DNA of 64,000 nt from Euglena gracilis (taxonomy: Eukaryota), in NCBI GenBank assembly GCA_039621445.1, contig CP154954.1, positions 46,045,847 through 46,109,846 on the forward strand, written 5' to 3'. Positions 13,560 to 59,099 of the stretch are shown in pieces; the stretch's first letter is position 1; every line of letters begins with the position of its first letter. The translations under genes and the position numbers were made by a program. The notes beneath the pieces are model-generated. The model had not been told where the DNA came from and did not search any database. It saw only the letters and a list, made by a program, of their open reading frames with translations.

Positions 13560-14250
13560 TAATTCATATCGATCCAATCTTGAGTGATTTTTTATAAAGC
13601 TTCTTTTCGTTCCCCGTGCATGAAAAATGGTTTTTGTCAGGTAGGCCGCGCTCCTTCTTGCAAAGGTATGAATGCATAACGATATGGTCCTCTTACGGGT
13701 GGGTCGGGTTGTTCCTTAGACCGAAATACGGTTCCATCATACCTGACAAAAATTTCCTCTCTTAGCTTTATTATTATGTCTTCCTCTTCGGATTCCGTTT
13801 CCTTACTCCCCTCCCCCTCCCTTGCAGTGATCATTTTGTGAATTGGTACCCGGTTGTCACTTCCAGGATGAGGTTCTTTTTTGGTGGGGGGGGGGGGCGA
13901 TTGTACAACGTTTGGCGCTGCCAGTGGCAACGTGAGTTTCATGTCTGTGTGCACTATTTTTTGTGACTGCCGAATGTCCACTGTTCTGCCAATGTCGACC
14001 CACTTTTCCTGAATGTTGGCCAGTTTTCTGGCGACCATCTCGTGAAATAAAATGCCTCCTGCTTGCTGTCTCATGCGCCTTCTCCAAAAAAATTCTTCCC
14101 TGAGGGACCGAAAATCTGGTTTTTCCCAAACTGGGACCCCTTCCAGGGGGGTGTTGGGTGGGGAGGCTGGTAAATCTGTTGCCTGGGGGGGGGGTCTTGC
14201 CATTGAAAGGGGCTGGGTTCCTCCTGCAGGATCACTGTGCCCAGTTTTGC
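13560..14250 (-). pseudogene. Degenerate Ty3/gypsy-like pol fragment (region just upstream of RT)
   Basis: IPLQEGARPT*QKPFFMHGERKEAL*KITQDWIDMN resembles the pre-RT segment of gypsy pol; in-frame stops. Confidence 0.45.
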
Positions 14251-15404: not shown

Positions 15405-15418
15405 GGTGATTATGCAGA

Positions 15419-15443
15419 CGAAAAAAAATAGACACTCAGAAAG
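15419..15443 (-). other. Second genomic copy of the spliced-leader exon (25 nt)
   Basis: Identical 25-mer; 14 nt upstream of the ATG of the 390-aa ORF; not followed by GT. Confidence 0.9.
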
Positions 15444-15960
15444 ACTCTCGCTTTGTGTTTCTTATATACACGGTGGGTAGCACAGCTTCGCCCGAACCGT
15501 GCCCCGGGCCCAGGGAAACGTCTCTTTTGGCCCTCGCCACAAGAGGAACCCCCTTGTGACTCCCTGTGCCGCCACAGGTCGCGGGTTCGGACTCCCACGA
15601 CAGAGGAAGGGGGAGGAAGGGACCAAGAGGGCGAAGCACAAGAAGATGGTGAGGTCCTGCTTTCCTTGCCGGCTGTTCTGTTCTGGTGTGTTTGTGCGTG
15701 CGCGGGGGGTGCTTCTTACTGCGCCTTTGTTGCCGGAGTTGGCGATTATGAGGCCGCGTCCGACACCTTGGCGAAGCTGAACCGCCGTGGCTCCGCCCCC
15801 CCCCCCTCTCCCATGGTCGCTTGGTGGGCCCCCCCCCCTGATGGGGATGGTGGTCTCTTTCTGTGTTTCTGGGTGGGTTGCTGGGGTTGCTTGGTTGGGG
15901 GTCCCCTTTCTGGTTGGGATGTCTTTCTTTTTCTGCTGATTTTTTGGGTGAGAGGGTTGG

Positions 15961-16063
15961 GCTCACCATCTTCTTGTGCTTCGCCCTCTTGGTCCCTTCC
16001 TCCCCCTTCCTCTGTCGTGGAAGTCCGAGACCATTCGGGCTCCGCACTGCGAGATGGTGAGGT
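15961..16063. repeat. DIRS internal complementary region (ICR)
   Basis: Joins the complement of the 3' extension to the complement of the 5' terminus (junction GTCCGA|GACCATTC). Confidence 0.85.
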
Positions 16064-17025
16064 ACTGTGCACCCCCCTTTGGGCCATAATTGTTTGAATT
16101 TTTGAAACGTCCCCCAGCCTCAAATAATGAGCTTGGAAGGCCCCAAAATTTTTCCACTGAACCAGCTGCTGGACTTCTTCCACTTGCAAACCAGCATTTT
16201 TCCACCATAAAACCCCAGCCCCTCTGGTGCTGTGGGGTTTCCAGTGGGTGGTGTCCACCCCCCCCCTCCTGCAGAATTTCGTTGGTCAGGGAATTCACCC
16301 TTTCTGAAGTCAAAGGTCTTTTGCCATCCAAAGACCACAACAAATGATTTTTGTGCCCAACCAGGTGGGCTGTCCTTCCCACATATTCTTTCAATAAATG
16401 CCAGGGGCTGATGAGGGAGGTGTGTGGCAAAACCAAAATCTCCTCCCACCTTGGGCACTGCCATCCTTTCCTTTGCAATAAAATGAAAATTTTTTCTCCT
16501 ACGAAACTGATTTTTCGCTGTGTCCTGGCTAAATCAACCCCCCTGTGGAGGGACAACAGCCTCCAACAGATGGTGAGCCTGTTTCTGAGCTCTTTCACCG
16601 ATAGGTCTGAGAGGGGTTTGGATTTCCTGATGATGTTCTCCAAGAAATCAGTGGGGTCCCAAAAATGGGCATACTTGCAGACATTGGAATTCCATTTCGT
16701 CTTCAATGGAGACAAAAGAGCGGAAAACCTCAATGACCCAAACCCTGGGAGTAATAAAACTGCTGCATATGCATTTCTTGCAGTGTTGAGGCTGTGGGCA
16801 GCCAGGTCAAGGATGGCCTCAGCCATCCTGTGGACTGTGCAGTCCTGCAGGGGCACCCCTTTGTGCAACAATTGGCCCATCAAAGCCTTGAATGCTGAAT
16901 CATATCTTTTGACATTCCCCAAATTTTTTATGTAAGTGTCGATACTGGACATCGAAACTTCCTGGGATTGTAATATTTGCCTGACACAATCAAGCAGGCC
17001 AAATTCCACCTTGGGGGGGGGCATC
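16060..17025 (-). CDS. DIRS tyrosine recombinase (frameshift in a C-run near 16265)
   Basis: HRGVDL (Arg), KPHSTRGAG (HxxR), QWKN...AHY (Trp/Tyr). Confidence 0.82.
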
Positions 17026-18850
17026 TCCTCCCCCCAGCAGTTGGTGAACAGACAAAACTGGGGGGTACCAGCAAAACCTTGCTGCCTGGCTGCCTGATTG
17101 ACATTAATTGGCGCCACCATGATGTCGAAGCCCAGTGGGGTACAATCAACAGACAATTCAGGTCTGGGTTTAGCATCAATCTCTGAACCCACTGGGGGAT
17201 GATGCTCCAGGGAGGGTTGGCATAAACTGGGGGGAGACCCCTTAAATCTGCCTTCAAGGCATCCACCAGCAAGGCCCCTTGGTGGGGGTATCGACAAATG
17301 AACTTGGGGAATTTTTTGTTGCTGGGTGTGCAAAACATGTCCACCTCTGGGGTGATGTGGTGCTTGAAAAATTTCAGAATCTGGTGAAAAATGTTCATGT
17401 TCAGGGTGTAATCCCCTGGATCTTTTTGCTCCCTGGTCAGGGAGTCTGCCAGTTGTTCCTTTGTGGGAACCCAAACCACCTGCAAATTGATTTGCATTTC
17501 TTGGCAATGGTACAGAAGGGGTTTTAGGATGGAATTTAGGTATGGCTTTTTGCCTCCCCATTTTGTTAAATAACTTACTGCCACCTGGCTGTCCACATGA
17601 AGAACAATGGTTTGTTTTGGTTTTGCCAAAGCCTTTACAGTTTCCGCTGCAGACATCAATTCTTTTTGATTGATGTGAAGGACATGCAGATCCCTCCAGA
17701 AATCTTGGACCTTTTGACCAGAATTTTTGTCCAGCCCCCCCCATTGCCAGGTGCTGCTGTCTGAGAACAGTTCTTGAGAGGCCTGGGATTGAAAGGCTCT
17801 GCCCACACCTGCTGCAAAAATGCCTTTAACTCCACAATTTGATCTTTGACCCCCTGGGGAATGGTTAGGGTGTGGTCCCAACCCCACTTTGTGTGCAAAT
17901 CCACCATCTTGCAAAGTTGATCTGTCAGAATTCTGAGAAAAGGCATTGAAACTAAATAGCTTCTGACTTGCCCTACAATAGAGCTGAGTTTTCTGCAGCT
18001 CATTTTTTGTGCTGTCAGCACCTTTCCTAATTCCTTTGTTAGGGATTTTAATTTTTCCTGTGGAATTTCCAGTTGGCCTTTTTTCAAATTGATCCACTGG
18101 CCCAAATGCTTTATTTCCTGTGTTGGTTCCAGACATGATTTGGGGAGGTTTATTCTGAAACCTGCCAGCAAAAGATCTTTTTTCATTTCTGCCAAATGAT
18201 GGGCTGCTGTCTTCTTGCTGGGGGCTAACAGCAAAATGTCGTCCAGGTAGATGAAAACTACCTTTCCTTCCTTCCTCCGTTTCCTGTCCCAGACTCTCAT
18301 GAGAGTCATAAACTTTTGTGGCAGGCTGCTTAACCCAAAGCATGCAGCTTGAAATTGCCACGTTTCCCCCCCCCACCTGCATGCAAACATGCTTTTCCAG
18401 GCTGCTGTGAAGCTTTAAATGGAAATAAGCATCTTTCAGATCTATTTTTCCACAGAACCAACCCTTTCTGAGATATGGGAATATGTTTCCCATGTGTTCC
18501 AGTCTGAACTTCTGGGGGGTGAAATGTTGATTTAACTGTCGACAATCTGAAATTAGTCTTTCCTTTGTCTTTCCCCCTTCCTGTTTGGAAATGATAAAAT
18601 AAGGGACAAAATGTTTTGCTTCCTCTGGGGGGATTTGCCTGGTTGCCCCTGCACATTCGTATTCCGTCAGAATTTTTTGGGCAGTCATTATTTCTTGGGG
18701 AGTTTTGAAGAGAACTTTTAAGGACATCTGAGGGGGGAGGGGAAGATCTGCCCTGACCCCTTCCCTTATCAGGTTTAATACCTCTGTGCTGGCTCCTGCC
18801 TTGACCCAATGGGGAATGCTGGCCTGCAGGGCCTTGTAAGGGGGTACCCC
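16928..18850 (-). CDS. DIRS RT-RNase H-DNA N6-adenine methyltransferase-like ORF (frameshifts near 18370 and 17800)
   Basis: RLISDCRQLN; KIDLKDAYFH; CFGLSSLP; IYLDD (18238-18249); FSDSS, HINQKEL, VDSQ, ADSLTR (RNase H); EVDMF and VYANPPW (MT). Confidence 0.88.
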   Translation of the reverse strand, partial: GVPPYKALQASIPHWVKAGASTEVLNLIREGVRADLPLPPQMSLKVLFKTPQEIMTAQKILTEYECAGATRQIPPEEAKHFVPYFIISKQEGGKTKERLISDCRQLNQHFTPQKFRLEHMGNIFPYLRKGWFCGKIDLKDAYFHLKLHSSLEKHVCMQVGGGNVAISSCMLWVKQPATKVYDSHESLGQETEEGRKGSFHLPGRHFAVSPQQEDSSPSFGRNEKRSFAGRFQNKPPQIMSGTNTGNKAFGPVDQFEKRPTGNSTGKIKIPNKGIRKGADSTKNELQKTQLYCRASQKLFSFNAFSQNSDRSTLQDGGFAHKVGLGPHPNHSPGGQRSNCGVKGIFAAGVGRAFQSQASQELFSDSSTWQWGGLDKNSGQKVQDFWRDLHVLHINQKELMSAAETVKALAKPKQTIVLHVDSQVAVSYLTKWGGKKPYLNSILKPLLYHCQEMQINLQVVWVPTKEQLADSLTREQKDPGDYTLNMNIFHQILKFFKHHITPEVDMFCTPSNKKFPKFICRYPHQGALLVDALKADLRGLPPVYANPPWSIIPQWVQRLMLNPDLNCLLIVPHWASTSWWRQLMSIRQPGSKVLLVPPSFVCSPTAGGRRCPPPRWNLACLIVSGKYYNPRKFRCPVSTLT

Positions 18851-19098
18851 TGGGTGTAATGTGTCTGGGGATTCCACAGGCCCCATCACTGGGGTCCTTC
18901 CCCCTGGCTGCCCCATCACTGGGGTCACACCTGGCTGCCCCATCACTGGGGTTCTGCCTGGCTGCCCCATCACTGGGGTCACCTCTGGCCCTGCCATAGG
19001 GCTGTCCAAAGACAGGCTTTCCCCCTGAATTTGAAAGATTGGGGAAAGTCTGTGTCTGCAATGGGGAGGTACATATATAGCTGGGGGGTGTGGGCTGA

Positions 19099-20115
19099 TT
19101 ACCTTCTGGGGGGGGCCTGGTGTAGCCAATCTTGGGCCTCCCCCCCCAAAGGGCTGATGTGATCTTGAATGCACTGGCCTCCAATGGCCACTTGATTTTG
19201 ATTGAAATGGCCTCCATTGGCCTTGAAGTCTTGATGCTTCTCCTGGCCTCCATTGGCCTTTTGCATATAATGGCCTCCATTGGCCTTGATATTTTGATGC
19301 TTCCCCTGGCCCCCATTGGCCTCTTGCATATAATGGCCTCCATTGGCCTTCCCCTGAAGGGGGTGTTGGTTGCTTGGATGTGCAGCTCCTGAGGGTTTTG
19401 TGTTTGAGAGAGCTGTGGGGTAAGTTGGACACACCTTTCCCCCGTGGGAGCTTTCCAGGTTTGGACACAGGCTGCCATAGCTTTGCTCCTGGGCCCACTG
19501 CCTCTTGGATGATGGCTTCCATAGCCATGATTCTGGGCCCCAGGCCCTGTCCAATGATGGCTGCCATAGCCTTGGTTTTGATTTGAATCCTTTGGATTGA
19601 GGCTGCCATAGCCTTTGCTTTCTCCCCTGAAAGGGGAGGAACGGAGAAAAAGGGGTGGAGTCTGTTGGACCTGTGATGGTGGTCCCCCTCTGTCTTCTCT
19701 TCCTGACCACAGTTGTCCATGGTCCATGGCCATCATTTTTAGGGGGGGAGCCTGAAACCTTGAATTTTGAAATCTTTGAAGTACTGGGTGGTGGGGGGGT
19801 TGCGATGGCCACGGACGGACGTGTCGCTTCCGCCCCTCCAGCTTCTGCAGCTGCTGCTGTGTCTCCACCTTCCCCAGCTTCAGCTCTTTGAAATTCATTT
19901 TTCATGGAAGTCCCGTTGTTGATCTCCGAGAGTTGAATTCTTCCGTCAGGAAGTTGAAGTTCCGAGAATTTTCGTCCACTTGAGTTCGTAGAAGTAAAGT
20001 TCTTTCTCCTTGAGGTCGAAGGGCAGAAATAGGAATCAGCCAACTCCGGCAACAAAAAGCAGTAAGAAGCACCCCCCGCGCACGCACAAACACACCAGAA
20101 CAGAACAGCCGGCAA
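19099..20115 (-). CDS. DIRS ORF1 (gag-like), low complexity, probably frameshifted
   Basis: Position downstream of the left ITR; homologous to the 5' part of 12173-12980. Confidence 0.4.
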   Translation of the reverse strand: MPAVLFWCVCACAGGASYCFLLPELADSYFCPSTSRRKNFTSTNSSGRKFSELQLPDGRIQLSEINNGTSMKNEFQRAEAGEGGDTAAAAEAGGAEATRPSVAIATPPPPSTSKISKFKVSGSPPKNDGHGPWTTVVRKRRQRGTTITGPTDSTPFSPFLPFQGRKQRLWQPQSKGFKSKPRLWQPSLDRAWGPESWLWKPSSKRQWAQEQSYGSLCPNLESSHGGKVCPTYPTALSNTKPSGAAHPSNQHPLQGKANGGHYMQEANGGQGKHQNIKANGGHYMQKANGGQEKHQDFKANGGHFNQNQVAIGGQCIQDHISPLGGEAQDWLHQAPPRR

Positions 20116-20483
20116 GGAAAGCAGGACCTCACCATCTCGCAGTGCGGAGCCCGAATGGTCAGCTTATACTACGGGTGTAATGTACAAAAGAGTGATGAGA
20201 TGTACTTGTTCAGGGTGCGAAGGTCAGTGGTTAGTGGTTAGCCGAAGATGAGCAAAGGTCACCTTCAATATATATTGGGCGGGGAGGGGGGGATGTTTGT
20301 ACCTCTTTCGCCCCAGGATGGCGTGTTTGTGTCGGGTTTTGGCTTTTGTTGTGTTTTGCTTCTCTGCGCGTCTATGTGACCCCTTGATTTGTCTTTGGCT
20401 TGCCGTGTGGCCCTGCTCAGGGGGTAACCAGGGGTTAAAAATAGCAGGTGAGAGTTCAAGGTTGGTTATTTGGTTCAGAGTTT

Positions 20484-21083
20484 TGTTGGGGGGTTTGGAG
20501 GACCCTGCTCGCCCGGGGGGGGGCTGCTTTCGCTGGGGCCACGATTTCATTTTTCCGGCCCTGGTGGGCTCAGGCCAGGGCCTTTGGCAAGTTGGGCCCC
20601 GTTTTCAAATAAATACACAGGTGGTAATGGGGGTGAGGTGTGCCCCCTCGACCCAGGTCCCCCTGTCTCCCCGCGTAGGATCGTTTTTAGCCTCCACTGT
20701 TTTGCCTTTTCAAACATTTGGATCAAAAGGTGAGCAAAGACAAACCAACCCTCCTACTTGGAAGCACACAGCAGAGCACAACAAACCTTGGACTTGAGAA
20801 GGTGGGCAAGTACCTTTGAGTTTAGGTGTTGAGTGGGACAAAGAATGTGGAAATGAATGCCTTGGCTTCCTGATGTTATTTGAATTGATCTTTTTGCTCT
20901 TCAAGTCTCCAATTGACTTTTCTTCTTTTCTGATTCTCAAATCGAATTCTCAAATTCTTCTTGAAATTTGCTGCGGTTCCAATTCCACTCGCGTGGCGGT
21001 TGACTTGCTTTGGAGGTTCCTACTGGGAATTTTCTGGGAATTTTTGGGAAATTTTTGGCTGCCGCCGCCAGCGGCAGCCGACA
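20484..21083 (-). repeat. 3' LTR
   Basis: Near-identical to 27216-27813; TG...CA ends. Confidence 0.9.
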
Positions 21084-24000
21084 CCCCCTCCCTTGCGACG
21101 TTAGTCGGACCCGTTTTTCTGCCCCACCCCCCCGAACCAAAACGGGGAGAGTAAAATTGATTTTTTTTTTGTGGGGGGTGAAAATTCTGAGTTTTTTTTT
21201 TTAAAACGGGTCCTGTCGCTTTTTTTTTTTGAAAATCGGTGTTACGAGTCGACCCCCCCCCAGCCATAATCTCGGGCACCTTGGGGGACTCTGAAAAATC
21301 AGGTCTTCGGGGGAAGCCCCCCCACCCCTTTCCTCCGACAAGCATGGGGAACGGGTCTTTGAACACAAAATCTGAAAACCGATTCCAAACAAAACAAACT
21401 CTGGGCACTCCACCCCAAGGCCTATGTCCCACGCTACCCCCTTGGTGAAAATCCTTTCTCTTTTTTTTTTTGGCAGCTTTCATTGTGTGAGACTTCATTC
21501 GATTTCGATTTTTTTTAAAAAAAATCAGGGACTTTGGCCAACAGTGCCTCAGAAAACGAATTGTGTGGGGAAAGAGAAAACAGAAACCCAGGCATTCCTT
21601 TCCAATTCGGGACAGAAGAGGTAAAACGGTGAAAAGGTGATGGGTAAGGAAAGGCAAACGGTGAGGTGCAAAGGTAAGACGGTTATATGGGGGAATAGTG
21701 TACAGATGGGTGTGCGGGTTCGTGTGCGTTGTGTGTTTTGTGTGTATGCACGCTCACTTCCTTGTCATGCATTCCAACCGAAAATGACTGGGTCGATCGA
21801 TTTTTTTTTGAATGCAAAGAGAACAGGGCTTCACATTGGCCCTCAGCCACTATATCACAGGGCTTTAGTGCCCACGTGGCTGGTTTTTTTTTTCATTGGC
21901 CCACACCAGGGCCTGTGGACGGAGTAGGGGTCATCTCCGGTCCAGGGTCCCCCCCCCCGAGTTCGGATGCCTCCAAGCTGTGTTCCGTGAAAAAATGCCT
22001 TTGACCAATATCCAATAGTCCAAACCGAATCAAAAAACTGAGTTTTAAAACTCCAAATCGTTTTGTCGTCCACCAGAAAAATTATCAAAATCCCAGGTTT
22101 TTCCAACTCTTTGAATAAAAATCCTCCAGCAACAAAAATCATCAAAAAATCAAAATCAAAAAATCTGAGTCCAACACAGGGCTTACAAAAGCCCTCAACA
22201 AAATCCAGTCCAGAATTCCAACCCCTGACATCCAGCTGAGAACAACCAACCCAAACAAAAGCATCCAGCAGCATACCGTTGTTGAGGGGCCAGGCCATCC
22301 GGCCCAGCTTTTGGCCCAACCAACACACTGCCATGTAGCCAACCAATCCGGCTTGCCAATTAAAATTCACTGCCCCCCCCCAGTCCACGGGGCAATGGGG
22401 GTCAAATGACATGGCAAACTCAAAAATACTGAAAATCCAAATCCAATTTTCTCAGCCAAGGCGATTTTTCGCTGCCCCCCCCCCCCAGTCACATGGGGCC
22501 ATGGGGGTCACTCTGGCTTCAGCCTCCAAACAAAAAAAATCACAAACCTGGGCCGTAATATCCAAGCCGGCTGAAATCTCACGCATGTCAAAGGACGGGC
22601 CTTCACAATGTCGCCCCCCCCCCACCGTCAACCAATGCGGGGAGGGCCACGGGTTAAAAATTCCTGGCTGCAAAACCGGAATCCCCATTTGACGAAAAAA
22701 ATGGGAAAAATGGATCTTTCATCAAACCCCGCCATATCTGGGGTATGACCAAAACAGTCACGGTCACCAATTGATGCAATCCTGTCCCCACTCAAACGTC
22801 TCACAGGGTATCCAATTCTGAGTCAAAAAATTCCAGCCGCGAATCCAAAGCTGATTTTGATCCACCACACCAACAAAAAAACAGGGCTTAACACAGCCCC
22901 CCCCCCCCCCAGCTGCACGAGGAGGGGAGAATAAACCAAGTTCAACCTCAGAAGCAAGCAAACTGAAACTCAGCCCCTGGCACCATGGGATCTGCCAACC
23001 AGATTGTTGAGCCGGGCTTGGGCAATCGCGCCCGGCTTGGTGAAGGTCAGCCATTTAGACTTCTCCCCCAGCCAGGCGACTGAAGTCCAATGAACTCAAA
23101 CTCCTCGGCCAGAACATGAAATTCACCAATCAATATCCCAGCTTTGAGCTCCCCAGCAACTCTCTCCCCAGCAACTTGGGGAAAATGAATGTATCCACCA
23201 TTCTGTGACTCCACAAACAATCCACAATTGTGATCATGACAATGGTAAATCATGTGATTCAAATGCATGTGATTCAATTGCTTGGGTCCCACTTATGTCA
23301 TTGAAGTCTGTTCACCATCTCATTGAAATGTCAATGTCATCATCCCAGTCTTTGAAGTCATGTTGAAATTGTTGAAATCCTTGAATTCAATAAGTTCAGT
23401 GAAAAATCCTTGATAACTTGACTGCTTTGCTCCTTCGTTTCGTGATTGCTGCTTGAACCTGCATGACAAGGCAACACACACGCACAAATTCACCACTGGC
23501 AACACACAAGGCAGATTTCTGAATTTTCTCACTAAAATACCACTGAATTCTGAACCGAAACGGCACTTAAAATCTGATCATGATCCATCAAATGGGTCAC
23601 ACGAAAACTGTGTGAGCAAGCCTCCAACTGCAAAAATTGCCTTTGGGAATTTTGCATCGTGGGCCCTGTGTATTTCTCCCTTAAGCAGACTCCTACAGCT
23701 GAAAAAAAATGCAACAGAAAGTGTTACCCACAGATCAACAGATTTTCAGTGAAAACTGAACCAAATGATGGTGCCACTGATGGGCCCAAAAATGAACTTT
23801 CCTCAGGGGTGTCTTTTCCTCCTGGGTTAATCCACCTTGGTTCCCACTTGGACTGAAAACTGAAAACTTTCCTGAGCCCTTAGATGGGTGGCCACAGGGG
23901 TGTTTATTCCTTGCCTGGGTCTAGCCCCACCCTCGGAACCCCTCTTTGCGCGCTTTCCAAAAAAACTTTTTGGTTCGAGTGGTCAATCAGAGGTCTCCCC

Positions 24001-25191
24001 TACCTCAGGATTTGGCAAAACCCCAGATAAAACCTGCCACAGGACTGCTGGGCTTCCATACTCGAAAACCACAATGAAACTGGACTGAAAAATCTGAAAA
24101 AACTGTGCCGATTCTCCAACATATGTCCCTGTCCAGGGGTAAGTTTCTCTCTGGAAAAACTGTCCCGTGACAAAAGGGACCAGCAAAAACACAAACCAAA
24201 ATTCCACCTGAGATGCCTGATTTGTCCCCGTCAGGGATGGTGACACATGTCAGTGCCGTGCCCCACCCCAAATGACATTTGGGACAACCGAAAACTGAAA
24301 ACTCTGAAACTGAAAATCATGATCTGGCTGCCTGAACACTAGGAGAAAAATCCCAAGCATCGTGGCTGGGCGTCTCCATTTAAGTGGAAAGCAACTGGGG
24401 AAAAAACATGCACCCCAGAAACCAGATTCAACAAATGTTTGACTTGGCTGTTTTTCATAAGCCAAACTCTGTGAACTGAAAATCCAGAATTAAACTTCTG
24501 GCTGATTTCGCATCTGCCTCCAACACCAAATTACGATGAAAAACGTATGAAACAACAACAATCACAAAAAACAGACCACCGAAACATACTTGACACCGTA
24601 AAGTGCTGTGCTGTGCCAGTCAGTGGTTAGACCTGTGCTGAAAAAAATCACCACCACCACTGATATGGTGGAAACCACCCCCAGCTGTTCCAGGGATTTA
24701 AATGCCAGTCCCAACCCCACCAATCTTGAAACCAACTTGGTCTCAAAATCTGAAAGTCGTTCCAACTGCTTTTGGATGGCCTCCAGAATTTTTTCGTCTG
24801 TCTGAATTTCCTTGGCTGCGTGGCAAAATCTGAGGAAGATTTTTCAGAAGATGCTGATGACGGCTGCGAATTTGTGACATGTCCAGAATTCAGGTTCACA
24901 GACACAAAATTTTCTGGACCTGGAAACTTTTCACTGGACTGCAACTTTTCAGTGATTTCAAACATTTTCAGCCGTTCCTCCAGAATCTTTTCTTCACTCT
25001 CCAGCCGTTTTGACAGAGCCTCGCCCTTCTCACACAGGGACTGGATCCTTTCAGAAAAACGATTTTCTATACACAAATTGTGGCTGAGCCCAGATTTCAG
25101 CCTGAAAACGTGTTCAGCCAGGGGGCCCCCGAAGGGGGCCCCCTGAACACGTTTTCAGGCTGAAATCTGGGCTCAGCCACAATTTGTTTAA

Positions 25192-26560
25192 AAACGTGTT
25201 CAGAGCCCGCCAAATGCCTGCCCTGAAATTCGTGGTCATAATTCACGCAAGGGGTCAAAAACGCGAATTTGTGAAATTCGGACCCAAAAAACGGCGCCCT
25301 CACTGAAAACGTGCCTGAACACATATGCCTGCACTGAAAGCGTGTCATTGCCACAAATGCCCTCACTGAAAACGTGCCTGAACACAGATGCCTTCACTGA
25401 AAACGTGTCATTGCCACAAATGCCCTCACTGAAAACGTGTCACCCCCGCCCCCTTTTTTTTTTCCTTTTTCCCGCAGCCCTGCCAATATGGCCAAACGCA
25501 CAGCAAACTTTGTGAATGGTCTTTTGCCACCACCCCCTAGAACGGAACTGTTCCTGGCTGCTCTCGCGGTATACCAGCAAGATGCCAAGAAGCCGAAGGT
25601 TGACCCCCTTCATGGCACCTTGCTGGCACAGGGCAACACAAAGAAAAAGTCCGGCTCCGTGGGTGCAGAGCTTGCTGCTGTTGCCAACTGTTTGGAGTTC
25701 GCCAAACTGTGTCAACATCGGCAAGCCTCTTATCCTGAGCTGGATGCTTTCTTTGTTGCCTGGACGGGATGGGAGCTGGAACCCAGCCTGTTGTTCGATG
25801 AGGCGAGCGTCATCGAACAATGTGTGGCTCAACGTGAGCAGCAGTCGGGAACTTTGTTCGTTTCAGGGAATCGTTTGGCAACCTCTTTTCAGACATACGT
25901 GAATGCCGTCGCTCGGGCATTCCGCAAAACAACGACCGAGGGAGTAGTGTTGCCTTCCTCAGAGCGCCAATTCCCCCACTTCAACGAGATGTTTTCGCGT
26001 TCCCTGGAGCGCGAACAGGAGAAATGTGGTTTTTGTGGTGTTGCGATTCCGAAAAATCCAAATTGTGTGGACCTGAACAAAGTTGTCTGTGACGCCTGCG
26101 GTTTGGCATATCATTTTCATTGCCAAGATTTGCGGCGGCCACCAAAGTATGGCTCTTTTTTGTGTAAAGCCTGTCGTGTGCCGTGATTTTCGCCCCTTCC
26201 CTGTCGTTGTGCCAAGGCAACGTAGCCTTCTTGTTGTCGTCTTCGTGTTGTGGAGTGCCCCCGACCCGCCTCACCCGTTGAGGACCACCCGGCCTCTCAA
26301 CCGCACGCCGATTTTTCATGATTGCGATTTTGCACGCCGATTTTTCTTGCTGGGGGTTGCCACAGATGCCCTCACTGAAAACGTGCCTGAACACAGATGC
26401 CTTCACTGAAAACGTGTCATTGCCACAAATGCCCTCATTGAAAACGTGCCTGAACACAGATGCCTTCACTGAAAACGTGTCATTGCCACAAATGCCCTCA
26501 TTGAAAACGTGTTCATGACCACGAATTTCAGGGCAGGCATTTGGCGGGCTGAACACGTTT
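25192..26560. mobile_element. TIR DNA element with TTAA target duplication carrying a PHD-finger ORF
   Basis: ~46-bp TIRs (AAACGTGTTCAG..CCCGCCAAATGCCTGCCCTGAAATTCGTGGTCAT); TTAA at 25188-91 and 26561-64; subterminal tandem repeats of CTCACTGAAAACGTG. Confidence 0.75.
25488..26186 (+). CDS. Protein with C-terminal PHD-type (C4HC3) zinc finger, 232 aa
   Basis: CGFC...CDACGLAYHFHC...FLCKAC; intact ORF preceded by a pyrimidine tract and AG (25476-77). Confidence 0.7.
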   Translation: MAKRTANFVNGLLPPPPRTELFLAALAVYQQDAKKPKVDPLHGTLLAQGNTKKKSGSVGAELAAVANCLEFAKLCQHRQASYPELDAFFVAWTGWELEPSLLFDEASVIEQCVAQREQQSGTLFVSGNRLATSFQTYVNAVARAFRKTTTEGVVLPSSERQFPHFNEMFSRSLEREQEKCGFCGVAIPKNPNCVDLNKVVCDACGLAYHFHCQDLRRPPKYGSFLCKACRVP

Positions 26561-26577
26561 TTAATTTCACTGCAAGT

Positions 26578-27456
26578 TCATGTGAAAAGGTCATGAAAAC
26601 CATCTGCCAAATTTCTCAGACGGGTTTCAATTTCAGCCGTCCGTCCCTCCAAGTGGCTGGACTCACTTTGGCTGGGCACTTCCTCCAGTTTCGTCAGTCT
26701 CTCGTTCAGAGGAAAAGTGTTTGAAAACAATTCTGTGATACCTGCCTCAACTTTTTGCCACCACTCATCCCAGGGGTCATAAAAAGTTTCAGGTTTTGTG
26801 ACCTCTGAAGTTTGCACACTGTCTGATTTGACACTCAGCTGTCCGGATTCAGATTCGCACCGCACACCTCTCATTTGCAAAGCATTTGGACAAGGGTCAA
26901 AACTTTCTTGTTTAACTTCAGGTTCTCCTGACAGTGAACTTGTTGGGCTTACCCCTGACGGTTTACAAGATTGACATGGAGAAGATGAGTCAGGGCCATG
27001 AGAATGTCCAATGGCTGCTTCACATCTGAGTTTCCTAAACTCCCTCTGAGACGCCAGATATTCAGCCTCCCTTTTTCTTTGTTCCTCTGTTTGGGTATCA
27101 CTGAATTGAATTCCCAACAATTTGAATTGGTCACAGTATTCTTTGATTTCTTTGTCATCAACGGAATCTAAAAATTCTTCACTGACAGAGTCAGTGAAGC
27201 CACCTCTGCGTACCATGTTGGGGGGTTTGGAGGACCCTGCTCGCCCGGGGGGGCTGCTTTCGCTGGGGCCACAATTTCCTTTTTCTGGCCCTGGTGGGCT
27301 CAGGCCAGGGCCTTTGGCAAGTTGGGCCCCGTTTTCAAATAAATCCACAGGTGGTAATGGGGGTGAGGTGTGCCCCCCCGACCCAGGTCCCCCTGTCTCC
27401 CCGCGTAGGATCGTTTTTAGCCTCCACTGTTTTGCCTTTTCAAACATTTGGATCAA
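26578..27456 (-). pseudogene. Gag-like coiled-coil ORF of the LTR element, interrupted; likely continues at 24648-25076
   Basis: Position after the PBS; coiled-coil character; the frame appears to rejoin across the 25073-26564 insertions if one frameshift is allowed. Confidence 0.45.
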
Positions 27457-27813
27457 AAGGTGAGCAAAGACAAACCAACCCTCCTACTTGGAAGCACACA
27501 GCAGAGCACAACAAACCTTGGACTTGAGAAGGTGGGCAAGTACCTTTGAGTTCAGGTGTTGAGTGGGACAAAGAATGTGGAAATGAATGCCTTGGCTTCC
27601 TGATGTTATTTGAATTGATCTTTTTGCTCTTCAAGTCTCCAATTGACTTTTCTTCTTTTCTGATTCTCAAATCGAATTCTCAAATTCTTCTTGAAATTTG
27701 CTGCGGTTCCAATTCCACTCGTGTGGCGGTTGACTTGCTTTGGAGGTTCCTACTGGGAATTTTCTGGGAATTTTTGGGAAATTTTTGGCTGCCGCCGCCA
27801 GCGGCAGCCGACA
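27216..27813 (-). repeat. 5' LTR
   Basis: Near-identical to 20484-21083; followed on the minus strand by a TGG-initiated PBS (27203-27215). Confidence 0.9.
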
Positions 27814-27831
27814 GTTTGGGCTCAAAGGCCT

Positions 27832-29097: not shown

Positions 29098-29182
29098 ATG
29101 CGATTGAGGTAGGTGCTGAAGTACTGTGCAAGAACGTCGGATGTCTTCAATGCGCTTATTCCAAACTTCTTCACAGAAGCGG

Positions 29183-31432
29183 TCATCTTCTTGGTGTTGG
29201 GACAGGGCCCCCCAAAACTTTCAAACCAGAACCAGCAACAAAGGCGGTCAGTGGTATTTGATGTAAGGGGCTGTCCTGTGGCGTGCCAGGGGGAATGCAA
29301 GGGACACCTTCTGTTGATGTGAACGCTGGTCCCCACAATCGACACTTTGCAGGGTTCACGGCCAACCCAAGCGCGGCTGCCTCGCGAATCAGAAAGGCAA
29401 GGGCATTGTGCAGCTGGGCTGGCGATCCCAGCAGATGGGCGTCATCCAAATACCAGCCCTGCCATTCGACCAAGGGTGAGAGGCCCTCACAAAGGTCTTG
29501 TACTCCCCAGGCGAAAGCGGCTGGTCCACATGGGTCACCTTGCTGAGCTCCCCTTTCGGAAGGCAGACAATGGTTTCCACAATACAGCTTGCTGTGTTGG
29601 GCGTAGCATGAATCCAGCCAAGGGCACGCTTCTGGGCATCGTCTACGGATGGATTGCAGGATTTTTTCCCGTGACAAAGAATTGAAGGCATTCCTGAAAT
29701 CCACTTGAAGCAGCCCCCAGCGATTGTCTCTGTCCGAGTGCAGAGTGTCCACCATTTGTTGGATTCCCATTGCGATCAGTGGACAAGCATTCGGCACACC
29801 AACGCCACATTGTGGGGGACTCAGTTCTTTCAAAGCGTTTACCACTGTTGGATGGCGCATGAGACATTTGCCAACCAAACGGCGGAGGGTTTCACCTGCT
29901 GCGATTGGGCGAGTGTCTTCATCACACACCGTGTGCTCCACAAGGTTTCCAAAAGCATCCTCTTCCATTGCTGTTTGTTTGTTTTGTTTTCGCAGCGGCG
30001 TCAACCTGGCGGAAGAAAGAATTGGGGCCATGCCAGGGTGAACACCCTTTGTAATTGCCCGACAGATGAAGGTATCAAGCACTTCGAGGAGGTCATCTCC
30101 ACAAGCCCCTGGGTAGTCTCCAACCATGGCCTTGAGGTGGTCGGGTCTCAGGCCAGAAGGGCCCGGTGCGGACTCCTTTGGGAACCCGAATATAGCTTTG
30201 CGCAGATTTTGCAATCGCTCTTTTGTGCTTTCCGGGTCTGAAGGAAAGGTGATCGTTTGGGAAGAGTCGGACACTGGGATGCGCGGTGGAGGCTCTGGTG
30301 GGTGAAGGTCACGTAGCCTTTGAATCACTTTTGGGTCATTGCTGTTCTGAACCCCTTCAGAGGTGAGCTCTCGGCAGGCTTTTGAAATGGCCCCGTGGCC
30401 AACAAGGCTTTCAATGCGGGAGAGGAAGCGTTCTTCAGTTGCCTTGGCCGCCAGTGCTGTTTTTTGCCTTGTCTGTCTGCCTTGCGGCTTTTGTGGGAGA
30501 CTGGAGTCCAACCAAGAATCAAACACAGGACGGGTGAGATACAGGCGAGCTCGTTCTGCAATTTTTCTCCCCACCATCGCCCAGTTTGATCGCCCGCCAC
30601 GCTGCAAAGGACAGAGCACCGCTTTGGGGAAGGCCCACAAGGCGTGCAGGGTTTCCCAGCCAGGTTCCATGTTGAAATGCTTCATCAGTTGCAGGTAGGT
30701 TTGATTGACATTGAGGAGGGCTCCACGTGGCAGGTATACAAGGGTCCCTCGATCATCAAAAGAAATTTCCTCAAAAGTGGGATGAAGGGATGGTGGGCAT
30801 GGAGCAGAGAATGGCGTAACCCCAGCAATGTGATTTTGACCAATGGGGCTTGGTGGGGGTCTAGCTGGGGCTGGTGATGATGCTGCTGCGGTTGTTGCCA
30901 CTGAGGATGAAGAGCTGGCACCCAAAGGGGGGTTGGAGAAGTTCAGGAAAGGCGTCGCCTGATTTGCTTGCATCCACATGGCCCCAACATCTGACGAGGG
31001 GAAGGGTCCTGGTCCTTGTGTGCCAATTGGGTTCGCCATGATGACCGTGGAGCACATTGAGGGGAGGCCTTGTTGGCCAAAGAACAACGGACCCGGCAGA
31101 TTTGGGAACCAAGATCGCCTTTCCAATGGTGGCACTGCGGGTGGTGGTGGTGCGGTCGGGGGGATGGAGATTTGTGATGCTGGCGCCATGTCAACGTCCT
31201 CACCCGACACCGACGGGGGCTCTGCGGGCGGTGGTGCAGTAGGAGGGATGGAGATTTGTGATGCTGGTGCCATGTCAATATCCTCAACCGACACAAATGG
31301 TGGGTCTGTAGGAGGTCCGGGGTTACTTTCAATGTCCCCGCAGGTCAGTAAAGACCGACCTCGGCCTGCTCCCCCCGATGCTGCCAGGGTAGGCTGTGTG
31401 CCGTCTTTTGCAGGAGTAGAAGGCACAAGCAC
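29183..31432 (-). CDS. Non-LTR ORF, N-terminal part: 2A-like peptide + reverse transcriptase (frameshift near 29205)
   Basis: SLLTCGDIESNPGP; RPIAAGETLRRL; VDFRNAFNSLSR; RGAQQGDPCGP; WYLDD; GLAVNPAKC; GLKVLG. Confidence 0.9.
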   Translation of the reverse strand: MLVPSTPAKDGTQPTLAASGGAGRGRSLLTCGDIESNPGPPTDPPFVSVEDIDMAPASQISIPPTAPPPAEPPSVSGEDVDMAPASQISIPPTAPPPPAVPPLERRSWFPNLPGPLFFGQQGLPSMCSTVIMANPIGTQGPGPFPSSDVGAMWMQANQATPFLNFSNPPLGASSSSSVATTAAASSPAPARPPPSPIGQNHIAGVTPFSAPCPPSLHPTFEEISFDDRGTLVYLPRGALLNVNQTYLQLMKHFNMEPGWETLHALWAFPKAVLCPLQRGGRSNWAMVGRKIAERARLYLTRPVFDSWLDSSLPQKPQGRQTRQKTALAAKATEERFLSRIESLVGHGAISKACRELTSEGVQNSNDPKVIQRLRDLHPPEPPPRIPVSDSSQTITFPSDPESTKERLQNLRKAIFGFPKESAPGPSGLRPDHLKAMVGDYPGACGDDLLEVLDTFICRAITKGVHPGMAPILSSARLTPLRKQNKQTAMEEDAFGNLVEHTVCDEDTRPIAAGETLRRLVGKCLMRHPTVVNALKELSPPQCGVGVPNACPLIAMGIQQMVDTLHSDRDNRWGLLQVDFRNAFNSLSREKILQSIRRRCPEACPWLDSCYAQHSKLYCGNHCLPSERGAQQGDPCGPAAFAWGVQDLCEGLSPLVEWQGWYLDDAHLLGSPAQLHNALAFLIREAAALGLAVNPAKCRLWGPAFTSTEGVPCIPPGTPQDSPLHQIPLTAFVAGSGLKVLGGPVPTPRR

Positions 31433-32085
31433 TTTTATTTGTTTGGCCGACGTTGGGGGTTTTTTCCGGTCAGCGGAGAGGGAACCTGGGGGTTGTCAAG
31501 TTCATTTTGCTGAGCAGGAGAGCTGAATCTGGCAGAACTGCCTAGCTGGGGGGCCACTGTTGCAGACCGAAAAGTGGATGTGCTGTCTGGCTGGGGGGCC
31601 ACTGTTGCAGGCCAAAATGTGGGTGAGCGTGGTTTGCCAGTTTGTCGGGGGCTTTTCAGGCTGAGTGCAAAAATGGTGTCCGAGGGGGCCTTTGCAGGCC
31701 CATGGCCTTTGTAGGCCACTGGGACAAAATGCTGCAAACATGACAAAAAGGTGTCACAGGGGGGCCTTTGCAGGCCCAGGGCCTTTGCAGGCCACTGGAG
31801 CAAAATGGTGTTGGGGGTGGGCCTTTGCAGGCCCAGGGCCTTTGCAGGCCACTGGGGTAAAACAGTGTTATTGAGGGGTTGGGGTGGCAAAATGTTTTTC
31901 AATGTCAAGTCAAAACTGCTGCAAAATGTGTCACTGAGGGGTTGGGGTGGCAGAATGTTTTTCAATGTCAAGTCAAAACTGCTGCAAAATGTGTCATAGC
32001 GGGTTTGCCATTTCGATTGATCAGAAGTTTGGGATGCAATGCAAAACACAGAAAAGAAGACACTGGAGCTGAAAGTGGCACTTAA

Positions 32086-32590
32086 ACCCCCCCCCCCAAA
32101 TATAAGAAACCCCTCGCTATAAGAAACCCCCAAATATAAGAAACCCTTTGGCTGATTTTCAGCCGACACCCAAATATAAGAAACCCCCAAATATAAGAAA
32201 CCCCTGGGCTGTTGGACGTCAATCCAATTATAAGAAACCCCTCATTTTCACCATGGGTCACAGCAAATCTCAAGGCGTGATCAACACAAAGATGAAGCCA
32301 ATCTAGTCTATTTCTTCTTTGCAAAGCAAGAGTTCAGAAGCAACTGCTATTTGGAAACACCTGTCCGTGTCACGACCCCCTTCCCCACTGTTTGAATCCT
32401 ACACACAGTGGTCACATGTAATTATTTATATGAAGGAACCGAAGGAAGAAAAAGTTCCATTTATAAGAAACCCTTGGGGCCGGCCTTCGACACCCAAATT
32501 TAAGAAACCCCCAAATATAAGAAACCCTTTGGGCCGATCGGCCGACACCCAAATATAAGAAACGGGTTTCTTATATTTGGGGGGGGGGGT
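32086..32590. mobile_element. MITE inserted in the 5' region of the CRE-like element
   Basis: TIR ACCCCCCCCCCCAAATATAAGAAACC; TTAA on both sides; internal TATAAGAAACCC repeats. Confidence 0.75.
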
Positions 32591-33019
32591 TTAATGGTTG
32601 GCAGATGGGGGGCCTTTGCAGGCCCAGATGAGGGGGCCTTTGAAGGCCCAGATGAGGGGGCCTTTGCAGGCCCAGATGAGGGGGCCTTTGCAGGCCCAGA
32701 TGAGGGGGCCTTTGCAGGCCCATAAGGTGCCACCAGGGCTGAGCAGCCCAGTACGCCAATGACGACAGCATGTCCAGCTGCAGCAGTACACCAGTACCCG
32801 CTCCTGCCTGCACCAGCAGGACTTCTTCTGCTGCACCACCAGGAGTTCCTCTGCCTGCACCAGCAGGACTTCAAGGCTGCTTCTGCCTGCACCAGCAGGA
32901 CTTCAGGACGTCTTCTGCCTGCACCAGCAGGACTTGTAAGTGACTCTCAATGGCAATTGAACTCTTGACTTGGATACCTGACCCCACCAGGGGCTTTCAA
33001 TTGTCCGCCATGTATTATG

Positions 33020-33044
33020 CGAAAAAAAATAGACACTCAGAAAG
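33020..33044 (-). other. Genomic copy of the euglenid spliced-leader exon (25 nt)
   Basis: Minus strand reads CTTTCTGAGTGTCTATTTTTTTTCG, matching the recalled Euglena SL ACTTTCTGAGTGTCTATTTTTTTTCG except the first base; not followed by GT. Confidence 0.9.
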
Positions 33045-33109
33045 CTTTGTGTGTGTGTGCGGCTAATTAGGAATTTCGATGTACAAATTCCACACCCGAC
33101 TTTTTCGTT

Positions 33110-33124
33110 GTTTTTTTTTTGCAG
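33110..33124 (+). promoter_or_regulatory. Putative trans-splice (spliced-leader) acceptor of psaD
   Basis: Poly-T tract followed by GCAG, with 6 nt between it and the ATG at 33131; no upstream cis donor or exon is evident. Confidence 0.65.
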
Positions 33125-33130
33125 ACAGCA

Positions 33131-56128
<22,998 letters not shown>

Positions 56129-58884: not shown

Positions 58885-59099
58885 CCTTCCGTATTTCTGG
58901 GGGCGCGTCTCTGCCCCCCCCCCCATTTGCCACAAAAACGTCCGCCTGACGTGGCACAGACCGGCCACCCGTTTGCTATTTATGCCATGTCCGCCAAACC
59001 AGACATTCATTTAGTGTGGTACACCAAGGTTGTCATTTTGTGGTTCACTGTGGACACCACAAAATTTTTTGTGGTTCACCTGTGGACACCAAAAAATTT

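Follow-up and report, generated by a model that had tools for sequence, protein, structure and literature searches.

Retroelements and spliced leaders at the locus

The window, as we denote the entire 64-kb stretch of Euglena gracilis DNA analysed here, harbors a chain of retroelement-derived sequences on the minus strand that is associated with two copies of the spliced-leader (SL) exon (Table 1). The interval that starts at the upstream copy (SL1) is one full-length insertion of a non-LTR retrotransposon of the RLE (restriction-like endonuclease) type, R2-like and about 5.7 kb long without the elements nested in it, which begins with the mature host SL. It lies ~90 bp upstream of a host gene encoded on the other strand, at a site that reads (AC)n-AAAGC. 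The downstream copy (SL2) heads a different repeat family, denoted element 2, which represents a gag-pol (LTR-type) transcript over its 5' 1.9 kb and shows no similarity to the RLE element; the two SLs are flanked by an (AC)n site in intergenic DNA and by another retroelement.

Table 1. Features of the locus (window coordinates; TSD, target-site duplication)
Feature	Coordinates	Strand	Description
Upstream ACACAAAGC copy, putative TSD of 7-9 bp	33044..33052	-	final C doubles as first base of SL1
SL1	33020..33044	-	exact 25-nt spliced-leader exon, then CATAATACATGG in place of the SL intron; within the putative duplication
RLE element 5' region	31496..33019	-	no long ORF; tandem repeats of 17-63 nt; ATATAAGAAAC seven times at 32100-32576
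2A-like peptide (presumed) LLTCGDIESNPGP	31313..31351	-	near start of main ORF
ORF A, 770 aa (stop to stop)	29183..31495	-	N-terminal region and reverse transcriptase
ORF B, 462 aa	27832..29220	-	predicted thumb, linker, CCHC knuckle, RLE
RLE 3' UTR, first 18 nt	27814..27831	-	up to the LTR-element insertion point; from contig joints
Nested LTR element	20484..27813	-	600-bp LTRs, 98.5% identical; TG..CA ends; GTTT 4-bp TSD; not RLE sequence
RLE 3' UTR, middle part	20162..20483	-	in contigs of other copies, joined without a gap to 27814 onwards and to 15586
Nested DIRS-like element	15587..20161	-	terminal inverted repeats; internal complementary region; inverted repeats I6 and I14; not RLE sequence
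RLE 3' UTR, terminal part	15459..15586	-	ends ...GTGTATATAAGAA
Downstream ACACAAAGC copy, putative TSD	15450..15458	-	directly after the terminal ...ATATAAGAA of the RLE element
GAGAGT	15444..15449	-	six bases between putative TSD and SL2; presumptive junction bases
SL2	15419..15443	-	exact 25-nt spliced-leader exon; 5' end of the second, different retro-copy
Element 2	13564..15418	-	14-nt leader and ATG, 390-aa Gln/Pro-rich ORF (15404-14232), then pol-like stretch

The RLE element and the insertions nested in it

The RLE element encodes a reverse transcriptase of the non-LTR type: ORF A matches the Pfam RVT_1 domain (E=1.2e-11; bit score 45.2, cutoff 29.6) and is 51% identical to residues 18-554 of its best match, the metagenome protein P0001. 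ORF A and ORF B are split by one frameshift at ~29190-29215, a position at which homologues have a single ORF. The C terminus is predicted to combine a CCHC knuckle with a PD-(D/E)xK restriction-like endonuclease: the ORF B columns C264, C267, C281, H290, E311, P320, D322, D337 and K367 are nearly invariant in 33 sequences, and a CCHC...RHN...E...RPAD...D...K pattern is conserved in the aligned homologues. In a Foldseek search with the AF2 model of ORF B (pLDDT 93), the top 7 matches were all R2 proteins (E values from 1e-8 to 2e-6, with ~450-470 columns aligned). The family profile compared with the PDB matched R2Tg with E=2e-41 across the span from the reverse transcriptase to the RLE, with R2 proteins ranging from 2e-41 to 2e-17 and L1 ORF2p at 9e-12; phmmer searches of PDB sequences with ORF A or ORF B alone returned no match, the relationship to R2 being detected by the family profile. 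Judged by profile and structural model, the element is identified as an RLE-bearing, R2-like non-LTR retrotransposon. The earlier note had called it CRE-like, which is borne out only to the extent that the element is R2-like and RLE-bearing; the CRE clade is marked by insertion into SL RNA genes, within the SL exon, and this copy lacks that hallmark.

Similarly to other R2/RLE elements, the architecture consists of one long ORF with a reverse transcriptase, thumb/linker, CCHC knuckle and predicted C-terminal PD-(D/E)xK-type endonuclease, without LTRs and with a short putative target duplication (seen in one copy). Unlike R2, the element is not located in rDNA, shows 12-14% sequence identity in the aligned C-terminal module, and has a 2A-like peptide, a long 5' region full of repeats and, at its 5' end, the host SL. 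N-terminal zinc fingers are present in the homologues P0010 and P0011 and are not evident in the window copy. The peptide near the start of the main ORF we take to be 2A-like, with a putative function; similar motifs are found in the homologues P0023 and P0069.

The first ATG behind SL1 opens four codons only (MADN-stop). The contig depth of the 5' region in public runs, a measure that does not translate into copy numbers, is similar to that of the ORF bins; variant copies in the public-run contigs skip from 32081 to 32591, and no contig among the matches listed bridges the 5' 1.5 kb and the ORF beyond 31791. All 8 occurrences of the 11-mer ATATAAGAAAC in the window, against an expectation of 0.02, are inside the RLE element, 7 in the 5' region and one at 15457-15467, which ties both termini to one family. 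The 3' end is located at ~15459 and has no poly(A) tail; two contigs from run X19 diverge from the window at 15469, 11 nt before the direct repeat, so that the exact end is defined to within ~10 nt.

The 3' UTR of the RLE element is interrupted by two nested elements. The LTRs of the larger one (20484-21083 and 27216-27813) are in direct orientation, each is flanked on the outside by GTTT, and TGG-starting PBS-like and purine-rich PPT-like sequences adjoin them on the minus strand; no recognisable pol was detected within this element, which is absent from the other RLE copies represented in contigs. The DIRS-like element encodes a YLDD reverse transcriptase (ORF 17656-18414) and shows a weak match to a Dam-like methyltransferase (E=0.0021, below the cutoff), with no Pfam match for a tyrosine recombinase. 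Contigs from four public runs (X1, X2, X15 and X19), representing other copies, skip both nests. The joint 20478->27813 was recovered in all four runs, in at least 7, 2, 1 and 1 contigs of X1, X2, X15 and X19, respectively, with sides of up to 42, 40, 24 and 35 letters among the matches listed. Joints from 15586/15587 to 20161-20173 also occur in 4 of the 4 runs, with short sides of 18-34 letters that among the matches listed reach at least 31 in X2 only. The LTR and DIRS-like elements landed in the RLE 3' UTR after the insertion of the RLE element. The two nested insertions recognized in the earlier note are thus borne out by the LTR pair with its duplication, the inverted repeats and the contigs that skip both. 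Its attribution of 20161-20483 and 15444-15586 to the RLE element holds for 20162-20483 and 15459-15586, whereas 15444-15458 consists of the direct repeat and GAGAGT.

Spliced-leader exons, direct repeat and element 2

The 25-nt SL (CTTTCTGAGTGTCTATTTTTTTTCG) matches the window exactly at the two sites in Table 1 and at no other position with up to 3 mismatches; at the same threshold there were no matches in 100 shuffles, and a search with the 17-mer core at up to 2 mismatches yielded no further SL relics in the 64-kb window. Both copies are uninterrupted, stop exactly at the last base of the exon, G, and are followed by a short leader and an ATG; in both, a sequence identical to the mature exon is joined to transcript sequence without the SL intron. 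The earlier observations that the copies are identical and in direct orientation, and that GT follows neither, are both correct: CATAATACATGG comes after SL1 and TCTGCATAATCACCATGG after SL2. The element sequence joined directly to SL1 is CATAATAC, and that of element 2 at the SL2 junction is TCTGCATAATCACC. There is no likeness between the sequences behind SL1 and SL2 beyond GCATAAT and ATGGC; given that a 7-mer common to two 20-nt stretches is expected about once in 80 cases by simple arithmetic, we build nothing on the GCATAAT likeness.

A scan of metagenome contigs with the SL 20-mer gave 13 matches at 12 loci: 8 SL RNA genes, recognized by the GTAT intron behind the SL, 2 contig ends (transcript-like), 2 unrelated matches and L004. 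Neither the RLE family nor the family of element 2 is among these 13 matches, and a separate metagenome scan for an SL followed by a non-G base gave 0 loci. The SL was found in 0 viral contigs, and the prokaryote genome collection contained it at 2 loci, of which one is a chance match in a bacterium and the other is L014. The base before CTTTC is A in the metagenome SL RNA genes, and G (SL1) and T (SL2) in the window; the lack of the A at both sites is what one would expect if the cDNAs ended at the base next to the cap. Among the matches listed, no contig from the four public runs crosses either SL junction; the loose ends at 15409/15412 and 33009/33010 in run X15 represent diverse SL-bearing contigs that are uninformative on both elements.

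The 9-mer ACACAAAGC occurs in the window only twice, with one copy abutting SL1, downstream of (AC)n, GCACACACACACAAAG, and the other located 6 nt before SL2. The RLE insertion has a direct repeat of 7-9 bp, ACACAAAG(C), on either side, as anticipated in the earlier note, which had suggested examining this sequence as a target-site duplication; the repeat is present at both ends of the insertion, in one copy of the element. The repeat is short and adjoins an (AC)n run of low complexity. When the real 5' flank was compared with random 31-nt pieces of the window, the two had an exact match of at least 9 nt in common in 77 of 20000 trials, abutment not being required; in a broader test, in which pieces of the window were paired at random, 175 of 19890 pairs had such a match. 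The ACACAAAGC pair probably represents a 7-9-bp target-site duplication, observed for this single copy, with SL1 inside. The position of SL1 within the duplication implies that it arrived with the inserted cDNA, presumably that of a trans-spliced RNA. The proposal that the SLs sit exactly at the two ends of the RLE element applies to SL1 at the 5' end and fails for SL2, which follows only after ACACAAAGC and GAGAGT beyond ~15459. The GAGAGT bases probably belong to the target DNA or were added without a template where the 5' end of the second retro-copy was joined.

The pol-like stretch of element 2 is homologous to the protease-to-reverse transcriptase junction of retrovirus-like polyproteins. 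Element 2 ends at 13563, whereas other copies and homologues run on (KFIEPAT...); at least 5 contigs of run X2 have a loose end at this position, and exact single-copy contigs extend across 13271-13592. The protein P0069 is 92-94% identical to part of element 2 and then continues into the 2A-bearing ORF of another element. A Protein Atlas search with the pol-like piece was uninformative (best score, 0.77), and a protein look-up of short N-terminal fragments with the translated SL upstream of the element 2 ATG gave no match. No second ACACAAAGCGAGAGT was found in a sensible place at up to 3 mismatches, so no target-site duplication is assigned to element 2.

Origin and implications of the SL-headed copies

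The two SLs are tags of two separate insertions rather than brackets of one element: SL2 is outside the RLE duplication, and the 5' junction of element 2 is 6 bp beyond the repeat. The locus is probably best explained as an RLE copy of an SL-trans-spliced RNA and a separate SL-capped gag-pol retro-copy, both made by the same RLE machinery. Under this scenario, the SL would have been trans-spliced to the RLE template RNA before copying, and the RLE protein would have reverse-transcribed this template by target-primed reverse transcription, reaching within one base of the capped end, with the ACACAAAGC repeat resulting from target-site duplication in the RLE insertion event. The same machinery may have copied its own RNA in cis and the gag-pol mRNA in trans, with both insertions at the same preferred target; common machinery together with target preference would explain the head-to-tail arrangement. 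A candidate intermediate allele would have (AC)n-AAAGCGAGAGT joined straight to SL2 and element 2. Two independent insertions 6 bp apart would need a hypothetical target preference; the 3' truncation of element 2 is not predicted by simple target-primed copying. The earlier suggestion that SL-bearing RNAs retrotranspose and stack head-to-tail thus survives in part: SL1 is inside the duplication, but the stack consists of the RLE element followed by a gag-pol fragment, not of the same element repeated.

Insertion at specific sites is typical of RLE elements, and in the CRE and NeSL clades these sites are SL genes: CRE1/CRE2, SLACS and CZAR in trypanosomatids and NeSL-1 in nematodes insert into SL RNA genes, where they disrupt the SL exon and duplicate target sequence. 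The element described here resembles these in being of the RLE type, in residing in a host with SL trans-splicing and in its association with SL sequence, and it shares with the CRE clade a distribution within the Euglenozoa. The first alternative in the earlier note is that the endonuclease recognizes a genomic SL and that this SL makes up the target-site duplication or forms part of it, in the manner of CRE/SLACS/CZAR; identical SLs in direct orientation near both ends, and a distance of 6-15 bp between the insertion and an SL that was already there or came later, would fit. We consider it very unlikely and find no support for the SL as the target duplication or for insertion into SL genes. 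Unlike the SLs interrupted by CRE/SLACS/CZAR/NeSL-1, both copies here are intact, exon-exact and intronless; the putative duplication is ACACAAAGC, whose two copies flank the element at an offset from the SLs, and the SL appears to be RNA cargo, not target. Had ACACAAAG plus the SL (33 nt) been duplicated, the 7 extra bases of the downstream copy would fall inside the duplication rather than at its junction. Furthermore, SL2 leads into the ORF of an unrelated repeat family, and the 68 homologues include none with a trypanosomatid CRE/SLACS name and none named as a CRE, NeSL, R4 or Hero element. A wrong contig join at a 25-nt SL common to many transcripts and retro-copies seems exceedingly improbable. 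The SL is short and present on many RNAs, and the depth of the SL bins in run X15 is 1812 and 2297 compared to single or double digits in the neighbouring RLE bins; however, the structure is colinear across four nested elements with the duplications intact, exact contigs of two independent DNA runs span 13271-13592 including the element 2 breakpoint, and a 25-nt repeat is presumably far below the read length behind such assemblies.

Template switching by the LINE reverse transcriptase makes chimeric retro-copies, such as U6-L1, and end-to-end template jumping by the R2 reverse transcriptase is known. As in the U6-L1 chimeras, the units here are RNA-derived, head-to-tail and in one orientation, and each upstream end is a complete RNA 5' end. 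Conceivably, then, the locus arose in one event from two templates, the gag-pol mRNA being copied up to its SL, GAGAGT being added, and the enzyme jumping to the 3' end of the RLE RNA. With the repeat included, only 15 nt separate the two units, and 6 bases at their joint are unassigned; element 2 is 5'-complete and 3'-truncated at 13563, which fits an internal start or a switch of copying; and P0069, which joins element 2 sequence to a 2A-bearing ORF, suggests that such chimeras may recur. We regard this route as unlikely, given that ACACAAAGC brackets the RLE unit alone, whereas the duplication of a composite would be expected at the far end of element 2, where none is seen; it would also require that the RLE RNA itself ended in ACACAAAGC and that the 5' flank matched this sequence by coincidence. 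Unlike in U6-L1-type chimeras, the direct repeat surrounds one unit only, which favours two events. It is about equally improbable that the SL on the RLE copy is a one-off, acquired by a rare read-through transcript that was trans-spliced near the 5' end, in a family that otherwise starts without it, for example from an internal promoter within the 5' repeats. The tandem monomers of the 5' region do resemble the promoter arrays of other non-LTR elements. Only one RLE copy was read from end to end and no second one with an SL was observed, and trypanosomatid L1Tc/ingi elements provide a precedent with unspliced transcripts from an internal promoter, according to the available portion of the report (PMC1874656). 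Against this, a second, unrelated family in the window is likewise SL-headed at the 5' end, so that SL-capped templates are apparently not rare here, and no copy among the loose ends listed extends 5' of the SL position.

A close parallel to the favoured reading, two SL-tagged retro-copies, comes from dinoflagellates, in which, as far as the available portions of the reports go, a DNA-encoded 5' DinoSL marks copies of trans-spliced RNAs (PMC12014239, PMC6050394, PMC5585692). In both cases the SL is encoded in the DNA and heads a retro-copy; in these portions, the dinoflagellate tags are found on genes of the host and often form stacks of truncated relics, whereas the tags described here are single, complete SLs in a euglenid, one on an autonomous retrotransposon and one on a fragment of a different retroelement. 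In the part of the literature covered by our search, we found no description of SL-capped retroelement copies in euglenids.

A DNA-encoded SL is a built-in tag of passage through mature, trans-spliced RNA. Its presence on an R2-like element and on a gag-pol fragment suggests that euglenid retroelement RNAs enter normal mRNA maturation, and SL-headed copies suggest that the reverse transcriptase copies templates up to the capped end; the RLE machinery may also retropose other RNAs in trans. A more far-reaching possibility, to which we give little credence, is that the RLE family depends on host SL trans-splicing, has an endonuclease that revisits (AC)n-AAAGC sites, DNA beside genomic SL copies or both, and mobilises SL-capped mRNAs of other retroelements in trans. 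If so, every new copy would inherit an SL, SL-delimited retro-copies would pile up head-to-tail across the Euglena genome, and the family would have an SL-linked life cycle distinct from the SL-gene homing of CRE/SLACS/NeSL. If the SL-headed state is general, the question arises how an element without a promoter upstream of its SL is transcribed again, and the SL would be a genome-wide marker with which to count and date retroposition in the very large, repeat-rich genome of Euglena, similarly to the DinoSL relics of dinoflagellates.

Two spliced-leader copies fused to different retroelements

The window contains two exon-exact spliced leaders (SLs), and behind each begins the transcript of a separate retroelement, joined directly at its 5' terminus: an R2-like non-LTR retrotransposon with a restriction-like endonuclease (RLE element) behind SL1, and an unrelated retro-copy (element 2; 13564-15418, minus strand) behind SL2. 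The 25-nt string CTTTCTGAGTGTCTATTTTTTTTCG, which is the euglenid SL exon, matches the window at just these two places even when 3 mismatches are tolerated, and at none in 100 shuffles, and a search with a shorter core (2 mismatches allowed) yielded no further SL relics in the window. As the earlier note had observed, the two copies are identical, in direct orientation and not followed by GT, the subsequent sequences being CATAATACATGG (SL1) and TCTGCATAATCACCATGG (SL2). In metagenome contigs, the SL 20-mer core is followed by GTAT in 8 of the 13 matches, the layout of an SL RNA gene, and in these is preceded by ACACTTTC, ACATTTC or ACACCTTC. The Euglena SL consists of 26 nt and starts with A; SL1 and SL2 both begin at C, with G and T, respectively, as the preceding base, in contrast to the A of SL RNA genes.

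GCATAAT is located at most 4 nt behind both SLs (33013-33019 and 15409-15415, minus strand), followed by ATGGC at the start codon; by simple arithmetic, the chance of a 7-mer common to two 20-nt stretches is about 1 in 80, and the shared motifs possibly represent a common leader or initiation context, or a coincidence. Two environmental contigs, L004 (JACCDR010719729.1, 1252 bp) and L014 (988 bp, Pontimonas MAG), contain SL variants (ACACCTTC.../ACTTTC...) with upstream DNA, followed by non-intron sequence; in L004 this begins with a leader, after which an ATG opens an ORF without interruption for at least 262 aa; possibly, these are SL-tagged retro-copies in other euglenids, or assembly chimeras.

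About 90 bp from SL1, a host gene starts on the other strand (33107-33700, plus), with a T-rich tract and AG, likely a trans-splice acceptor, ahead of the ATG at 33131, a signal-like protein start and several short GT..AG-type introns downstream. Repeated blocks shared by 33864-40530 and 56437-63869 (spacing about 22.6-23.2 kb, 95-100% identity) indicate what would be a large segmental duplication.

Features of the window
Feature	Position	Strand	Remarks
SL1	33044-33020	minus	exact 25-nt string
SL2	15443-15419	minus	exact 25-nt string
ACACAAAGC, upstream copy	33052-33044	minus	final C shared with SL1, as its first base
ACACAAAGC, downstream copy	15458-15450	minus	directly behind RLE terminal ...GTGTATATAAGAA, 6 nt (GAGAGT) ahead of SL2
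Repeat-rich region		minus	1.5 kb directly behind SL1, no long ORF
ORF A	31495-29183	minus	Pfam RVT_1, E=1.2e-11
2A-like 'ribosome skipping' motif	31313-31351	minus	LLTCGDIESNPGP, in ORF A, near start of RLE main ORF
ORF B	29220-27832	minus	frame differs from ORF A; R2-like C-terminal module
Nested LTR element	20484-27813		interrupts RLE 3' UTR 18 bases past stop codon
DIRS-like element	15587-20161		second interruption of RLE 3' UTR; terminal inverted repeats
Repeated block pairs	34207-34738/56787-57320; 38030-38657/61187-61804; 40282-40386/63765-63869
Degenerate telomere-like arrays	39994-40228; 63299-63418		GGGTTA/GGGTCA variants

The R2-like element and its nested insertions

The best homolog of the RLE element, P0001, is a single 1007-aa protein spanning both ORF A and ORF B (51% identity over P0001 residues 18-554, 45% over 545-1006), so the window copy has one frameshift near 29190-29215. 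In the alignment of ORF B with 32 homologs, the CCHC, H, E, PxD, D and K columns are nearly invariant; its predicted fold (pLDDT 93) retrieves R2 retrotransposon proteins as all of the best seven structural matches (E 1e-8 to 2e-6), and the family profile matches R2Tg from the RT through the endonuclease (E=2e-41), compared to an RT-only match to L1 ORF2p (~1e-11). Thus, the element is an R2-like, RLE-bearing non-LTR retrotransposon. The top one of 68 homolog hits is 51% identical, organism names are attached to the three weakest alone (a Curvibacter MAG and Ephydatia muelleri), and no trypanosomatid name appears among the 68. Two 2A-like motifs are present in the homolog P0023 (DVEPNPGP and DVESNPGP) and two variants in the database protein P0069 (GDVETNPGL and GDVQTQPGP); R2-like elements akin to this one may carry 2A peptides as a family trait.

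The nested LTR element has 600-bp LTRs (98.5% identical) with TG..CA ends and GTTT at both sides; no recognizable pol was detected within 20484-27813, and the element is possibly non-autonomous, with captured sequence. Its opposite strand contains an ORF (25401-26186, plus) with weak PHD-finger matches (E=0.0012, under the cutoff) and internal 63-nt tandem repeats. In the DIRS-like element, whose family is the most abundant repeat of the interval by summed contig depth, the ORF at 16928-19732 (minus) weakly matches the Dam-like adenine methyltransferase family PF05869 (E=0.0021, under the cutoff), in line with bioRxiv 10.64898/2026.05.21.726589, which reports DIRS/LTR elements with DAM from Euglena gracilis. 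A miniature derivative of this family (~0.8 kb; 12172-12980, plus), in the opposite orientation, retains the two termini, which match 19986-20161 and 15587-15654 at 95-96% identity, without the coding interior.

The joint of 20478 to 27813 is found in contigs from four public sequencing runs (at least 7 in X1, 2 in X2, 1 in X15 and 1 in X19), with sides of up to 42, 40, 24 and 35 letters, respectively, among the matches listed; the joint of 15586/15587 to 20161-20173 also occurs in all four, with sides of 18-34 letters, only X2 reaching 31 among the matches listed. Hence, in other copies, 20162-20483 and 15444-15586 adjoin the ORF end without a break, contrary to the outcome that the earlier note said would refute its reading, namely 20161-20483 and 15444-15586 falling outside the element consensus.

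Ends of the two units

The two copies of ACACAAAGC listed above are the only ones in the 64-kb window. Random 31-nt window pieces had an exact match of at least 9 nt to the real 5' flank in 77 of 20000 cases, and to each other, taken as random pairs, in 175 of 19890, in a test that is deliberately broad, with no demand for abutment to the insert; the real repeat does abut it. We read this repeat as a putative 7-9-bp target-site duplication bracketing the unit from SL1 to ATATAAGAA. Because the duplication encloses SL1, SL1 would have come in as part of the inserted cDNA, with SL2 outside that insertion. The 11-mer ATATAAGAAAC, present 8 times in the window (0.02 expected), is confined to the RLE element (7 copies in the 5' region and one at the 3' terminus), which independently supports the assignment of both ends to one family. 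At least two X19 contigs leave the window sequence at 15469, 11 nt ahead of the repeat, and the last ~10 nt of the element may be a variable tail.

In element 2, an ATG 14 bases past SL2 opens a 390-aa Gln/Pro-rich ORF (15404-14232), followed by a frame ending ...RGPYRYAFIPLQEGARPT and then by QKPFFMHGERKEAL.KITQDWIDM. An HMMER comparison of all against all produced 35 hits. The alignments of P0077 and P0095 cover 13840-13568, and both proteins run on with KFIEPATSKNSEWLSQTFPVPKK; P0095 also has weak aspartyl-protease matches upstream of the aligned region (E=5.9e-5, under the Pfam cutoff). Element 2 thus represents the 5' portion of a retrovirus-like gag-pol family of the LTR type. At least 5 X2 contigs part from the window sequence at 13563, and their continuation translates as KFIEPATTKN; in both DNA runs, 13271-13592 is spanned by exact contigs whose depth (47-58) is ordinary, so this copy truly ends at 13563, followed by unique DNA. 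The summed contig depths of the two families, about 50-100 thousand and 200-390 thousand, are not copy numbers but are high enough to imply that both are repeated. Over 66 residues, P0069 (444 aa) matches element 2 (14074-13877, minus) at 92-94% identity; beyond them it passes into an unrelated ORF, absent from the window, that carries the 2A-like motifs and a Cys/His cluster. P0069 represents either a nested insertion or a chimeric retro-copy, located at another site in a closely related genome.

Origin of the SL-headed copies

The RLE unit encodes an R2-like RT/RLE protein, and the short direct repeat encloses this unit along with SL1. Both template RNAs would have been SL trans-spliced before being copied by target-primed reverse transcription, at most one base of the capped end being left uncopied, with the RLE protein acting in cis on its own RNA and in trans on the gag-pol mRNA. 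One preferred target, (AC)n-AAAGC, regenerated by the duplication, would have served both events. Alternatively, one event in which the enzyme jumped between templates would account for the adjacency of the two units and the 3' truncation of element 2, and P0069, with its passage from element-2 sequence to another element's 2A-bearing ORF, lends this some color. It leaves unexplained why only the RLE unit has the repeat on both sides. If the SL itself were the target duplication, or part of it, 7 extra bases would fall inside the downstream copy, and the sequence behind SL2 would not be accounted for. Of the two alternatives in the earlier note, SL-capped retrotransposition is therefore retained, given that SL1 lies inside the putative duplication, and the SL as target or duplication is abandoned; the proposed head-to-tail stacking holds for the orientation but not for the identity of the units, given that the RLE element is followed by a gag-pol element with no similarity to the RLE 5' region.

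The RLE element falls within the R2-like RLE group; it does not show the target choice that defines CRE, SLACS, CZAR and NeSL, which insert into SL RNA genes. At the level of titles and abstracts, the literature on Euglena and SL retrotransposons, retrogenes and trans-spliced non-LTR elements yielded no description of SL-bearing retro-copies in euglenids. The SL-tagged retrogenes of dinoflagellates, as described in PMC12014239, work in the same way as the window copies would, except that here the tagged copies are retroelements and the host is a euglenid.
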